A stretch of 40,210 nt of DNA from Planctomycetota bacterium. GTDB lineage: Bacteria > Planctomycetota > UBA11346. Under the pieces are notes generated by a model. It was not told the origin of the DNA. It was given only the letters and a program-made list of their open reading frames with translations, and made no database searches. A program made the position numbers and the translations under genes. The stretch spans positions 1-40,210 of the forward strand of contig JBBRLJ010000045.1 in NCBI GenBank assembly GCA_038231435.1. The letters are read 5' to 3'. How positions within the stretch are numbered: the first letter of the stretch is position 1; every line of letters begins with the position of its first letter. Shown one piece after another: positions 22,627 to 27,055 of this stretch.

Positions 22627-23334
22627 TCATTTCGTCGGGTCGGTCACTTTTCCTGGGGTCAGTTCGGGCAGCAGCAGGGGATGTGGCAACGCGGCGAGGG
22701 CGAGGGCGACGGTCGGGGCGTCTGGAGCCTGATTGAAGGCGTACGGCATCGAGTCGATGCGCAGATTGCGCGACTTGCCGGCCACGGTCGTGGGATCGTG
22801 GATGTACATGCGCTCGGCGCGCGAGACGGTGCCGCGCATCAGCAGGCGGACCTGCTCCGCGGGCTTCGGGCCGCCGATCAGTTCGATGACGTTGTCATCC
22901 TTGGTGCGGTGGACGACGGCGCGGTCGGCCACGCCCACGAAGGGATCGCCGCCGCTGCCCGCCGCGACGCCGGCGTGGCGCAAGGTCCCCGAGAGATGCA
23001 CAGGCCCCTCGAGCGTGGTGAGGCTCCCGCCTTCCCGGCGCGCGTATTCGCCATCAGGGGACTCGAGGTAGATGACGCCGTTGTCGAACGGCCGCCGCAC
23101 CTGCAACTTCTTGAACACCAGGCGGTCGAAGCGGTCGCCCTCTTGGGTCAGCTGCTCGGCGTGGATGACGGTGGGCGGAGTACCCGCGTCTCCCCACAGC
23201 TGGAACACCACCTCGCGGGCCCCCGGCTTCATCAGCTCGGTATGGCCGAGGCAGCCGACCGCGGTCAACGACCCCAGCGCGAGGACGCCGGCCCAGGCGG
23301 CGGAGCTATGGCTGGATCGGGCCCATGGACGCAT
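22627..23334 (-). CDS. Hypothetical lipoprotein, beta-rich (possibly LptC/LptA-like)
   Basis: Lipobox-like TAVG-C followed by beta-strand-rich sequence; fold assignment is tentative. Confidence 0.55.
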   Translation of the reverse strand: MRPWARSSHSSAAWAGVLALGSLTAVGCLGHTELMKPGAREVVFQLWGDAGTPPTVIHAEQLTQEGDRFDRLVFKKLQVRRPFDNGVIYLESPDGEYARREGGSLTTLEGPVHLSGTLRHAGVAAGSGGDPFVGVADRAVVHRTKDDNVIELIGGPKPAEQVRLLMRGTVSRAERMYIHDPTTVAGKSRNLRIDSMPYAFNQAPDAPTVALALAALPHPLLLPELTPGKVTDPTK

Positions 23335-23484
23335 GCGAGCTCCGGACGGTTGCCCAGTCAGGATAACGCCTTAGAGGGGTGGCGCCATTGCCCCGACGAG
23401 CCACCGGCGCCCTTGACCGCCCCTGGGTGGTCGCCACACTACCGCCCTTCCAGCGTCCCCCCTTCCGAGCCGATAGGAGCGATC

Positions 23485-23718
23485 GTGAGCGAGATCCGGA
23501 ACAAGGTCATCGAAATCATTGCCGACCGGCTCTCGCGCGACAAGGCGACGATCACCGAGGCGAGCAACGTCGTCGCCGACCTGGGAGCGGACAGCCTGGA
23601 CATCGCCGAGATCATGATGGACCTCGAGGACGCCTTCGGCGTGAAGCTCGAAGAGGACCAGGATCTCAAGACCATCGGCGACATCGTGAAGTACATCGAG
23701 GGCAAGGTCGCCAAGTAG
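23485..23718 (+). CDS. acpP: Acyl carrier protein
   Basis: LGADSLD motif; GTG start with AGGAG RBS; upstream of fabF. Confidence 0.95.
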   Translation: MSEIRNKVIEIIADRLSRDKATITEASNVVADLGADSLDIAEIMMDLEDAFGVKLEEDQDLKTIGDIVKYIEGKVAK

Positions 23719-23820
23719 GCTCCTCGGGCTGCCTGATGCTCGATTACCGACGCCAGCCCAGATCGATGTTGAACCGGCCGACCGGCCGCTGGCAGTAGCC
23801 CACCACAGAGGATCCGCCAG

Positions 23821-25068
23821 ATGGGTCAGCGCAGAGTCGTCGTCACGGGAATGGGAGTCCTGGCCTGCAACGGCCACGACGTGTCCGCGTTTTGGGACGC
23901 GCTCAAGGCGGGCCGCCATGGCATCGTCCCGATCACCACCATCGACGTATCGAACCACGAGACCAAGTTCGGCGGCGTGGTCGCCATCGACAACCAGACC
24001 CTGACCATCGGCGACAAGAAGAACGCGCGCCGCAAGGATCGCTTCGTGCACCTCGCGCTGAAGGCCGCCGCCGAGGCGATGGCCATGAGCGGACTCGACT
24101 ACAAGAATTGGAAAGACCCGTTCCGCGTCGCCACCGTCGTCGGCTCGGGCGTGGGCGGCCTGCAGACCATCGAGGAAGAGGTCAAGGTGCTCAGCACCCG
24201 CGGCCCCTCGCGGGTGAGCCCTTTCCTGGTCCCGAAGATGATCGTCGACAGCGCCGCAGGCGACATCTCGATCATGTACGGCGCCAAGGGCCCCAACTAC
24301 TGCATCACCACCGCGTGCGCCACCGGCTCGCATTGCATCGGCGCCGCCTTCAACCACATCCGCGTCGGCCAGTGCGACGTGGCCATCACCGGCGGCAGCG
24401 AAGCGCCGATCACCGGCCTGGGCATCGCCGGCTTCAACTCGATCGGCGCGCTGTCGCGCCGCAACGACTCGCCCGGCACCGCCAGCCGGCCGTTCGATCT
24501 CGAGCGCGACGGCTTCATCATCGGCGAGGGCGCCGGCATCCTCATCCTCGAGGAGCTCGAGCACGCCAAGGCGCGCGGCGCGGTGATTGTCGGCGAGATC
24601 GTCGGCTACGGCTGCACCGGCGACGCCTTCCACGAGACCCAGCCCGATCCCACCGGCGCCGGCGGCATCGCCTGCATGCGCATGGCCCTGGCCGACGCGC
24701 AGCTGAATCCCGAGCAGCTCGGGTACATCAACGCGCACGGCACCTCGACCAAGTACAACGACGCCGGCGAGACCAAGGTCATCAAGACGGTGTTCGGCGC
24801 GCACGCGGCCAAGCTCCCGGTCTCGAGCACCAAGAGCATGACCGGCCACACCCTGGGCGCGGCCGGCGGCATCGAGGCGATCGCCTCGATCATGGCGCTC
24901 AAGGACGGCATCCTGCCGCCGACCATCAACTATCAGACACCCGATCCGGAATGCGATCTCGACTACATCCCGAATCGCGCGCGCGCGGTGAAGGCCGAGT
25001 ACGCCTTATCGAACAACCTCGGCTTCGGCGGCCACAACGCCTCGGTCATCTTCAGGCGATTCGGCTGA
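23821..25068 (+). CDS. fabF: 3-oxoacyl-ACP synthase II
   Basis: RRVVVTG, TACAT (catalytic Cys), NAHGTST, KSMTGH, GFGGHN. Confidence 0.96.
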   Translation: MGQRRVVVTGMGVLACNGHDVSAFWDALKAGRHGIVPITTIDVSNHETKFGGVVAIDNQTLTIGDKKNARRKDRFVHLALKAAAEAMAMSGLDYKNWKDPFRVATVVGSGVGGLQTIEEEVKVLSTRGPSRVSPFLVPKMIVDSAAGDISIMYGAKGPNYCITTACATGSHCIGAAFNHIRVGQCDVAITGGSEAPITGLGIAGFNSIGALSRRNDSPGTASRPFDLERDGFIIGEGAGILILEELEHAKARGAVIVGEIVGYGCTGDAFHETQPDPTGAGGIACMRMALADAQLNPEQLGYINAHGTSTKYNDAGETKVIKTVFGAHAAKLPVSSTKSMTGHTLGAAGGIEAIASIMALKDGILPPTINYQTPDPECDLDYIPNRARAVKAEYALSNNLGFGGHNASVIFRRFG

Positions 25069-25139
25069 TCGCCGCCGCAGCGGCCACCCGAGCAACGTTC
25101 ACACTCCAAGCCAAAATACCGCACGAAAAGAAGCATCCC

Positions 25140-25451
25140 ATGGATCACAAGCGCATCCGCGAAGAGGTCATCGAGATCCTGGCCAACAAGCTGCACAAGC
25201 TGCCGGCTCCGCCGCCCAGCTGGGAGGATCCCGAGGACGATTTCGACTACGAGGCCCAGGCGCTCAAGCCGGACATCACCGACAACCACCTCGACATCGC
25301 CGAGGTGTCGATGGATCTCGAGGACGCCTTCGGCATCAACTTCGAGGACTCGCTGCCTGGCGACGCCGGCATGGAGACCATCGGCCTGGTTGTGGATTTC
25401 ATTGAGAAGCGCGTGAACAGCGCGCATCAGAAGAAGAAATCCGACGACTGA
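25140..25451 (+). CDS. ACP-like paralog lacking the phosphopantetheine Ser (103 aa)
   Basis: Helices align with the neighbouring AcpP (VIEILANKL; LDIAEVSMDLEDAFG; TIGLVVDFIE), but DSL is replaced by NHL. Confidence 0.85.
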   Translation: MDHKRIREEVIEILANKLHKLPAPPPSWEDPEDDFDYEAQALKPDITDNHLDIAEVSMDLEDAFGINFEDSLPGDAGMETIGLVVDFIEKRVNSAHQKKKSDD

Positions 25452-25488
25452 GGGCGCTGGCCGCCGTCCCGCGCGGCGCGAGCCCGAC

Positions 25489-26169
25489 GTGATGCCGATG
25501 ACCGACGCGCGCGAGGATCTCCCTTCCGACCTGCGCCGGCGCGAGCGCATGGCCCGCGACCAGCTGCGCGAATGCGCGGACGCGCGCGTGGTCGCCGCGA
25601 TGGCAGGCCTGCCGCGCCACTGGTTCCTCCCGATCGGCATGGCCGGCCACGCCTACGACGATTCTGCGGTCGCGATCGGCTGCGGCCAAACCATCAGCCA
25701 GCCACGAGTGGTGGCGATGATGCTCGCGGCGCTGCGCCTGGCTCCTGGCATGCGCGCGCTCGACGTCGGCGCCGGATCCGGCTACGCCACCGTGCTCATC
25801 GATCGCCTGGTGTCGCCCGGCGGCTGCGTCGTCGCGATCGAACGCCAAGGCTCCCTGGTCACCGAGACCGCCGCACGGATCGCCGAACTCGCGCCGCGCT
25901 CGCGCCTGGTCCTCGGTGATGGGCTCGAGGGGTTCCCGCAAAGCGCGCCCTACGACGCCATCCACGTCGCCTGCGCGTGCGAAACCATGCCGGATGCGCT
26001 CGTCGCCCAGCTGTCCATCGGCGGCCGCATGATCCTGCCGCTCGGTCCGCACGCAGGCACACAAGAACTGACGCTGGTCACCAGGACCACCGCAGCGAGC
26101 GAGCGCGCGACCATCAGTCCCGTGCTGTTCGTCCCGGGCCTGCCGGGTGTGATCGACGACGTCTCATGA
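25489..26169 (+). CDS. pcm: Protein-L-isoaspartate O-methyltransferase (start 25489-25498)
   Basis: AYDD, GQTISQP, LDVGAGSGY, APYDAI, QL..GGRMILP. Confidence 0.9.
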   Translation: MMPMTDAREDLPSDLRRRERMARDQLRECADARVVAAMAGLPRHWFLPIGMAGHAYDDSAVAIGCGQTISQPRVVAMMLAALRLAPGMRALDVGAGSGYATVLIDRLVSPGGCVVAIERQGSLVTETAARIAELAPRSRLVLGDGLEGFPQSAPYDAIHVACACETMPDALVAQLSIGGRMILPLGPHAGTQELTLVTRTTAASERATISPVLFVPGLPGVIDDVS

Positions 26170-26223
26170 TGTGCTCGGACGCAGGTCTGCCCGGGCGCGT
26201 CGCTGGCCGCCAGCCCGTGCTGA

Positions 26224-26288
26224 CCGTTTCTTCCTAGGGGGCAGGCCGAAGGCCGATGTCGGGGGGCCGCAGCCCCCCGACCAAGAGC
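26224..26288 (-). repeat. Dispersed hairpin repeat, copy 4 (overlaps 3' end of trpC)
   Basis: Minus strand GTCGGGGGGCTGCGGCCCCCCGAC-ATCGGCCTTCGGCCTGCCCCC-TAGGAAGAAACGG, with compensatory changes relative to the other copies. Confidence 0.85.
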
Positions 26289-27055
26289 TTCCCGCGCAGC
26301 TTCTTGAGCGACGCATCCGGCGTCGTCGCCGTCATCAGCGCCTCGCCGACCAGCACCGCGTCGACGCCGGCTTCCTCAAGGCGCTGGCAGTCCTCGCGCG
26401 TCGAGATGCCGCTCTCGCTGACGATCACCCGGCCTCCGCCCTTGAGGCCGGACATCAGCGCGAAGGTGGTGTCCAGGCTGAGCGAGAAATCCTTGAGATT
26501 GCGGTTGTTGACGCCGATCAGGTCGGCGCCGGCGGCGAGCGCGCGCGCGGCCTCGTCGATGTCGTGGACCTCGACCAGCACATCCAGGCCGAAATCCTTG
26601 GCGAAGCCCTGCAGGTCGCGCAGCTGACCATCGCTCAGGCAGGCGACGATCAGCAGGATCGCGTCGGCGCCGGCCAGCCTGGCCTGGGCGATCTGACGCT
26701 CATCGATGATGAAATCCTTGCGGATGATCGGCAGCGTCACCGCCGCGCGCACGCGCACCAGGTCATCCAGGCTGCCGAAGAAGAACTTCTCGTCGGTGAG
26801 CACGCTGATGCAGTGCGCTCCGCCAAGGACGTACTGGAAGGCGATCAGCACCGGGTCGTAGTCGGGAGCGAAGATGCCGCGCGACGGGCTGCCCTTCTTG
26901 CACTCGGCGATGACGTGCACGGTGTCCTTATCGGGCCGCTGCAACGCCGCGCGGAAACCGCGGCAGGCCGGCAGATCCCGCATGGCGGCGCGATCGAGCG
27001 CAGGCAGGCGCGCGACCTCGATGCGCTTGCGGGCGATGATCTCGTCGAGGATCAT
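26234..27055 (-). CDS. trpC: Indole-3-glycerol phosphate synthase
   Basis: IAECKKGSPS, SVLTD..FF.GS, RKDFI, LVEVH, GVNNRNL, SESGI, LVGEALM. Confidence 0.96.
   Translation of the reverse strand: MILDEIIARKRIEVARLPALDRAAMRDLPACRGFRAALQRPDKDTVHVIAECKKGSPSRGIFAPDYDPVLIAFQYVLGGAHCISVLTDEKFFFGSLDDLVRVRAAVTLPIIRKDFIIDERQIAQARLAGADAILLIVACLSDGQLRDLQGFAKDFGLDVLVEVHDIDEAARALAAGADLIGVNNRNLKDFSLSLDTTFALMSGLKGGGRVIVSESGISTREDCQRLEEAGVDAVLVGEALMTATTPDASLKKLRGKLLVGGLRPPDIGLRPAP

Follow-up and report, generated by a model that had tools for sequence, protein, structure and literature searches.

To our knowledge, the serine of acyl carrier proteins (ACPs) that accepts phosphopantetheine is described as strictly conserved. 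The acpP-fabF locus of an uncultured Planctomycetota bacterium raises the question of what a paralog of AcpP can do once this serine is gone. We analyzed a stretch of 40,210 nucleotides (contig JBBRLJ010000045.1 of GenBank assembly GCA_038231435.1), referred to below as the window, in which the gene following fabF, here called X, encodes such a protein.

The X gene and the predicted fold of its product

The genes acpP, fabF, and X all lie on the plus strand, with 71 nt between the fabF stop and the X start:

23485..23718, plus strand: acpP, ordinary housekeeping ACP; GTG start, serine of the DSL motif intact; PP-binding 45.6 bits, TIGR00517 73.6 bits (cut-off 70.45)
23821..25068, plus strand: fabF, beta-ketoacyl-ACP synthase II; TIGR03150 578.7 bits (cut-off 493.75)
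25140..25451, plus strand: X, serine-less AcpP paralog; ATG start, 103 amino acids, single copy
25203..25241, plus strand: loop I insertion of X (approximately residues 22-34), acidic, variable in length, between the KLHxLP and F-D-Y/F motifs
25287..25289, plus strand: codon CAC for His50 at the position of the phosphopantetheine serine (Ser36 in E. coli); helix II of the model begins at this residue
25290..25334, plus strand: putative helix II docking motif L51-G65 of X, with six E. coli-equivalent positions invariant
25341..25370, plus strand: remodelled helix III segment F68-G77 of X, F-E/D-E/D-x-L-P-G-x-x-G, from alignment and model

BLASTP aligns X to the adjacent AcpP with 34 identities in 87 positions (39%, E 3e-16), and helix II is identical in 13 of 15 residues; relative to this AcpP, X carries insertions of 11 residues in loop I and of four in the helix III segment. 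The codons GAC AAC CAC at 25281-25289 specify D48-N49-H50, where AcpP has A-D-S, and His50 pairs with Ser36 in the alignment to E. coli AcpP. The helix III segment of X is two residues longer than that of E. coli AcpP; in the AcpP of the window it is two residues shorter, and Lys occupies the position of E53. No Pfam family matched X at E <= 0.1, and its score against TIGR00517, 22.7 bits, is below the AcpP family cut-off of 70.45. The ESM Atlas neighbours, which are leads only, are unnamed clusters (0.91-0.92) and a PP-binding cluster (0.90).

An AlphaFold2 model of X built from 105 sequences (mean pLDDT 89.6, pTM 0.81) has DSSP helices at residues 3-17, 42-46, 50-64, and 81-102, with no helix III assigned. 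The top Foldseek matches of the model are all ACPs, none of them at E <= 0.001, and the matches listed by VIA-align are carrier-protein folds, the best with Z 10.7 and an rmsd of 2.2 over 82 aligned residues. As modelled, X has the ACP helical-bundle fold, and together with the sequence match this bears out the initial annotation, in which X was taken for an AcpP paralog placed after fabF.

The trio is flanked by two further genes. The one at 22627-23334 on the minus strand, divergent from acpP, has no Pfam or NCBIfam match, and its LptC-like ESM Atlas neighbours (0.90-0.91) lie just below the recognition threshold and are a lead only. Directly after X, at 25489-26169 on the plus strand, is pcm, encoding protein-L-isoaspartate O-methyltransferase (TIGR00080 163.9 bits, cut-off 159.05). 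A promoter and terminator scan of positions 23000-26500 yielded no promoter-like site and a single minus-strand terminator-like site, which is at chance level.

Distribution, gene order, and selection

One X match each, at E <= 1e-18, was found in 45 of the 48 genomes of the class, all of which belong to one family with 18 genera, and X is present in 7/7 class genomes with completeness >=90% and contamination <=5%. Incomplete assembly probably accounts for the three absences: fabF of G019 is cut by the end of its contig, and in G030 and G423 no fabF ortholog was detected (best identity 31% and 36%, respectively). Two matches with an apparent stop close to their end proved to be intact genes once excised. 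In other Planctomycetota families, none of the 377 genomes of the phylum sample matched at E <= 1e-12. Of 1.84 billion representatives searched with a profile, 121 matched at E <= 0.001 and nine at E <= 1e-10; among the 31 of these 121 that were examined, the top nine are X-like and most others are Ser-bearing ACPs. Of the 7998 candidates with lengths of 192-2000 amino acids that were scored, none was a fused form of X at E <= 0.001, which is weak evidence. Searches of viral contigs with alignment A1 or protein P0134 as queries confirmed no phage copy, and the viral fold search with X returned ACP-like matches only, all at E > 0.001. As judged from these sequences, X is a real protein family, restricted to this class within the genomes searched and undescribed in the literature covered.

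The proteins P0134, P0139, P0140, and P0145, encoded on contigs of up to 370 kb, are Ser-bearing and ACP-like, with a helix II very similar to that of this lineage; the tree places them close to X and to the AcpPs of the family. Six bins with X loci (L037, L062, L065, L066, L071, and L073) are labelled Kuenenia or Brocadiaceae; since their FabF proteins are 70-77% identical to that of the window and X occurs in no other family of the phylum sample, these labels are probably loose and give no evidence for X in anammox bacteria.

X follows fabF in 75 of 79 loci, which are kin and partly redundant. Three of the remaining four have less than 30 nt upstream of X, and the fourth (L101) has 327 nt with no fabF within. 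Between fabF and X the median gap is 18 nt, the two genes sharing one base in three loci; two long gap values (L082 and L089) are artefacts of frame extension. The acpP-fabF-X order seen in the window is conserved: every one of the 39 genome loci with sufficient flanking sequence has the complete trio. Of the neighbouring genes, the divergent one upstream was recognised in 28/35 family loci, and pcm follows X in 16/37. The trio is the most stable unit of the locus; linkage alone is no proof of a functional tie.

For the nine pairs closest by FabF dS, X shows a dN/dS of 0-0.11, with the exception of one pair at 0.31. Medians taken across all 930 pairs, 0.34 for X and 0.31 for FabF, are inflated because dS is saturated, and for this reason only the close pairs were used. 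The codon adaptation index of X is 0.71, that of acpP is 0.75, and those of five neighbouring genes outside the reference set are 0.50-0.62. X is under purifying selection.

In a quick version of the phylogenetic tree (92 columns, about half of the X rows), 45 X rows group together with an SH-aLRT support of 92, on a long stem near the family AcpPs and with no resolved sister; an old acpP duplication is therefore a likely but not proven origin of X. Gene conversion was considered as a source of the helix II match between X and AcpP. Over 53 loci, codon identity is 0.627 within and 0.571 across genomes, and amino acid identity is 12.57 of 15 within and 12.59 of 15 across genomes, and this explanation was rejected.

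The serine position and the acyl pocket

Proteins P0001, P0003-P0127, P0129, and P0243-P0246 were pooled with 70 locus translations into an alignment of 183 distinct X cores; P0128 and P0130, being partial, were left out. The position of the phosphopantetheine serine is filled by His in 99 sequences, Pro in 65, Gln in seven, Glu in six, Asp in two, and other residues in four, and by Ser in none. It behaves as an ordinary first helix position behind an N or D cap, and the His and Pro forms are intermixed across the tree. Thus, of the change from DSL to NHL described in the initial annotation, the loss of serine holds throughout, and NHL itself is not fixed. At position 57, the serine of the EVSMD motif, Ala is found in 90 sequences, Ser in 66, Thr in 15, and Gly in eight, and 39/183 cores have no serine anywhere in residues 5-90. 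On account of these three observations the alignment indicates that X is not a carrier: its phosphopantetheinylation would be impossible, and it would bear no acyl chain.

Three explanations that depart from this picture, or from the retention of X as a functional gene, can be weighed on the same alignment. Modification of a working carrier at Ser57 or Thr47 could be suggested by the presence of T47, near the start of helix II, in 181/183 sequences and by the name 'acyl carrier protein' given to many homologs in JGI sources. This is quite improbable, as T47 lies three residues ahead of the canonical serine site, position 57 is poor in serine, and the S36T variant of E. coli ACP is not acylatable, according to PMC13343975; the EVSMD serine thus fails as an alternative attachment site, and homologs named 'acyl carrier protein' in databases should not be modelled as carriers. 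Phospho-histidine or acyl-imidazole chemistry at His50, raised in the initial annotation, would make use of the commonest residue at the site. Phospho-histidine carriers have an invariant reactive histidine, however, and the occurrence of Pro in 65 members and of Gln, Glu, or Asp in others, scattered over the tree, largely refutes such chemistry and leaves very little probability for it. A decaying or unexpressed duplicate is hardly conceivable, X being intact, single-copy, present in 45/48 genomes over 18 genera, constrained in the close pairs, and invariant at six helix II residues. The absence of serine from every homologous core and the near-acpP codon usage likewise dispose of a read error, and the scenario in which close homologs retain serine and selection on this copy is relaxed is contradicted on both points, by the alignment and by the dN/dS of the close pairs.

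The remainder of the fold has diverged from AcpP at several places. In loop I, 79-130 of the 183 sequences have gaps at alignment columns 25-29; only the acidity of the segment and the KLHxLP and F-D-Y/F motifs on either side are conserved, so the Pro/acidic insertion noted initially is confirmed in its character and flanks, and its length varies. L149:167-604 (minus strand), P0124, and P0129 have a further insertion of some 12 residues, immediately ahead of the T-D-N-P-L-D motif, and therefore the loop before helix II tolerates changes in length. The helix III segment is marked by F68 (178/183), P73 (174/183), and G74 (182/183). Conserved motifs specific to X are R5, E9, E12, K17, L21-P22, F35-D36, Q40, T47, and P73-G74.

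Among the pocket positions of E. coli AcpP, V43 is replaced by a small residue (Ala 90, Ser 66, Thr 15, Gly 8), I54 by Phe (178/183), and helix III by a Pro-Gly loop. On alignment and model, the acyl pocket looks rebuilt, and it may be closed by the remodelled helix III segment. Occupancy of ACP pockets depends on the tether. Non-covalent binding of a free fatty acid, an acyl-phosphate, or another lipid, which X would hand over to, or sense for, ACP-docking enzymes, is compatible with the retained bundle and with the room that a small residue at the V43 position could leave. We consider it improbable, as the Phe at the I54 position and the Pro-Gly loop more likely fill the pocket, and tether dependence counts against an untethered ligand.

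Helix II, FabF, and other possible partners

The acidic and hydrophobic recognition face of helix II is retained in the alignment of X: the equivalents of E. coli L37, D38, E41, M44, E47, and E48 (L51, D52, E55, M58, E61, and D62) are each present in 183/183 sequences. In contrast, the D35 equivalent is Asn in 115 sequences, Asp in 58, and Glu in four (acidic in 62/183), and that of E13 is Asn, His, or Ala, whereas in the family AcpPs both positions are acidic in 55/55, and the attachment serine is likewise present in 55/55. The AcpP residues at the FabF interface are E13, Q14, D35, D38, E47, E48, E53, D56, L37, V40, and M44, as given in PMC7138838. Seven of these eleven are in X as in the AcpP of its own lineage (the L37, D38, M44, E47, and E48 equivalents in 183/183, V40 changed to Ala in 174/183, and an acid at D56 in 176/183); X and the family AcpPs also agree in having a basic residue at the Q14 position and in lacking E53. 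It appears from these comparisons that the cofactor-proximal end of the interface is relaxed in X and the remainder is frozen. The invariant acids of helix II include exposed ones that have no obvious folding role in the ACP fold, and X therefore most likely still binds a reader of ACP helix II. A non-carrier mimic that keeps the recognition helix, as proposed in the initial annotation, agrees with the lack of serine, the six invariant positions, and the purifying selection.

The single most likely candidate reader is encoded by the preceding gene. The FabF of the window is 49% identical to that of E. coli, and C166, H306, and H343 are invariant in the 57 aligned rows, the Cys-His-His triad being intact. 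The docking residues K67, R70, R71, R131, and T273 (E. coli K65, R68, K69, K128, and T270) are conserved in 56-57 of 57 rows. The family FabF mostly lacks equivalents of R127 and R206 (S130 in 39/57, G209 in 37/57); at the positions of E. coli Met70 and Ala72 it carries invariant Lys72 and Arg74. By alignment, the ACP-docking site of FabF is partly remodelled into a lineage-specific surface.

The remaining lipid machinery looks ordinary. FabH-family proteins were identified in 41/41 family genomes, AcpS in 37/41, PlsX in 36/41, and PlsY in 36/41. The genome of the window (G000) has FabD and FabZ, the latter within an ORF at C6:37221-38570 on the minus strand whose other part we take, from its motifs, to be LpxC. 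In this genome, which is 87.6% complete, plsX was not found, probably because of an assembly gap. With FabH-family proteins, AcpS, PlsX, PlsY, FabD, and FabZ all present, no gap in FAS-II was seen that X could fill, and therefore X does not replace a missing part. Five more PP-binding matches were observed in G000, on contigs C29, C11, C8, C14, and C9; those on C29 and C11 retain the serine, and FabF-like ketosynthases are encoded on the same contigs.

Complex prediction for the FabF dimer with X scored 0.35 (runs 0.39, 0.02, and 0.35), against 0.00 for the best of three controls, with at least 43% shared contacts and a partner pLDDT of at least 79. The mark for a pass is reached by 116 of 157 solved complexes and two of 215 mismatches, but at scores of 0.60 or less by only 18 of 157 and by both mismatches. 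The modelling with FabF suggested at the outset thus gave a pass, as weak support, which may reflect likeness to, or memory of, the already solved AcpP-FabF pair. A covariation analysis of X with FabF, by mutual information over 57 pairs, was uninformative: the top pairs follow clades, and none falls at the named docking residues.

We propose, with a probability of roughly 0.45, that X is a permanently apo ACP mimic occupying ACP-docking sites on FAS-II enzymes, FabF in the first place. Under this scheme, an old acpP duplication in the ancestor of the class would have given rise to X, and with the loss of the serine X would never be phosphopantetheinylated or carry an acyl chain. Judging by the gene order and short gaps, X would share a transcript with AcpP and FabF. 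Its helix II face (L51, D52, E55, M58, E61, and D62), together with the acid at position 70, would enter the docking site, basic and hydrophobic, that an ACP-dependent enzyme offers to its ACP, FabF being the single most likely target. As a non-catalytic occupant that delivers no substrate, X would damp or gate elongation; it could, for example, hold one of the two sites of the FabF dimer until displaced by acyl-AcpP. The parts of the scheme differ in strength. That X is a cofactor-free protein docking through helix II is likely; the placement of its target within FAS-II is a weaker step; and it is doubtful that X is a chromosomal, class-wide FAS-II regulator, an apo mimic made with FabF and holding docking sites on the FabF dimer, that sets elongation flux or chain length.

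Several observations stand against FabF as the target. X lacks the E13 acid, and mostly also that of D35, which contact region 1 and the gating loop of FabF and are both kept by the family AcpPs; its invariant E41 equivalent is not among the named FabF contacts and is an Isd11 contact in mitochondria. The place after fabF could be a leftover of a duplicated acpP-fabF segment; synteny also extends largely to the divergent upstream gene. If X is co-expressed with an essential enzyme and binds it unproductively, something has to trigger its release, and no such signal is in view. Moreover, AcpP reaches about 100 uM in E. coli (PMC8602292), a very high abundance, and therefore a decoy would need a much higher affinity. 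Finally, the described Ser-less ACP has a non-FAS partner. The main rival explanation, almost as likely, is a dedicated adaptor or structural subunit: after the duplication, X would have inherited from AcpP a moonlighting task that needs no cofactor, and the C-terminal half of its helix II would contact a partner outside FAS, the place of X in the operon serving only to secure high expression. In agreement with such a role, X keeps in 183/183 sequences the Glu residues at +5 and +11 after the serine site that are used by the Ser-to-Phe mitochondrial ACP for Isd11-Nfs1, has lost the cofactor-proximal acids, and has gained conserved motifs of its own; apo- and holo-AcpP stimulate MukB comparably, as stated in PMC8602292; and the top fold matches include ACP chains of large non-FAS assemblies (8xqx_J, Z 10.7, rmsd 2.2, 82 aligned; 7ard_U, Z 10.0), with matches within 1 Z being tied. 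On the other side, no candidate partner is in view: neither MukB (PF04310) nor an LYR protein (PF05347) was found over the cut-off in G000 (87.6% complete); for the LYR family, none of 14 prokaryotic controls passes either. IscS is an unlikely partner, as its binding in E. coli needs D35, D38, and S36, according to PMC13343975, and X lacks S36 and mostly D35. The failure to find a fused form of X adds weak evidence in the same direction, and helix II has not drifted from AcpP (12.6/15 identical on average), where drift might be expected with a single private partner.

The mimic proposed here can be compared with four kinds of known proteins. With AcpP itself (PF00550, TIGR00517) X shares the fold, the helix II, and the operon; it differs in the missing serine, the replacement of D35 mostly by Asn, the loss of E13, the loop I insertion, the Pro-Gly loop in place of helix III, and scores below the family cut-offs. 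The closest described case is the mitochondrial ACP of Plasmodium falciparum (PF3D7_1208300), with its apicomplexan homologs, a natural Ser-less ACP that keeps the Glu residues at +5 and +11 and works without phosphopantetheine. In the Plasmodium protein, as PMC8547962 reports, the change from Ser to Phe is needed for Isd11 binding, the compartment has lost FAS-II as well as the transferase, and a BLAST search with this protein retrieved no Ser-less ACP outside Apicomplexa except in Vitrella. Unlike this protein, X is bacterial, is variable at the site, and coexists with intact AcpP, AcpS, and FAS-II, and no LYR protein was found in G000; the two are presumably of independent origin. The apicoplast ACP still uses the cofactor in its FAS-independent role, according to PMC13574338. 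In E. coli, the apo form of AcpP suffices for its protein-binding role on MukB (PMC8602292), and therefore cofactor-free roles of ACPs exist in bacteria, but there the role is performed by the normal AcpP and not by a dedicated paralog.

Auxiliary ACPs of fatty-acid regulation such as AcpB of Enterococcus and amxACP of anammox bacteria resemble X in being second ACPs tied to FAS-II. Both are acylated carriers that retain the serine, whereas X presumably cannot be loaded. The planctomycete amxACP (PDB 7auf) is itself among the top fold matches of X (Z 10.0, rmsd 2.2, 83 aligned residues, 16% identity). In the literature searched, with partial full-text coverage and by word matching only, we found no description of a bacterial Ser-less ACP; likewise, within this partial coverage, control by a built-in substrate-carrier decoy is described for no bacterium.

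The one characterised exception found to the conservation of the ACP serine, that of the apicomplexan mitochondria, arose where fatty-acid synthesis was lost. Throughout this class, selection maintains the Ser-less X alongside a working AcpP and a complete FAS-II; X must therefore fulfil a task that AcpP cannot perform, or performs worse. The X gene is at the same time a clean marker for this lineage. If X regulates FabF, an antibiotic target, it would provide a natural scaffold for protein inhibitors of this enzyme and represent a new means of controlling lipid synthesis; if it binds something else, it would isolate a cofactor-independent ACP function that is hidden elsewhere because AcpP is essential.
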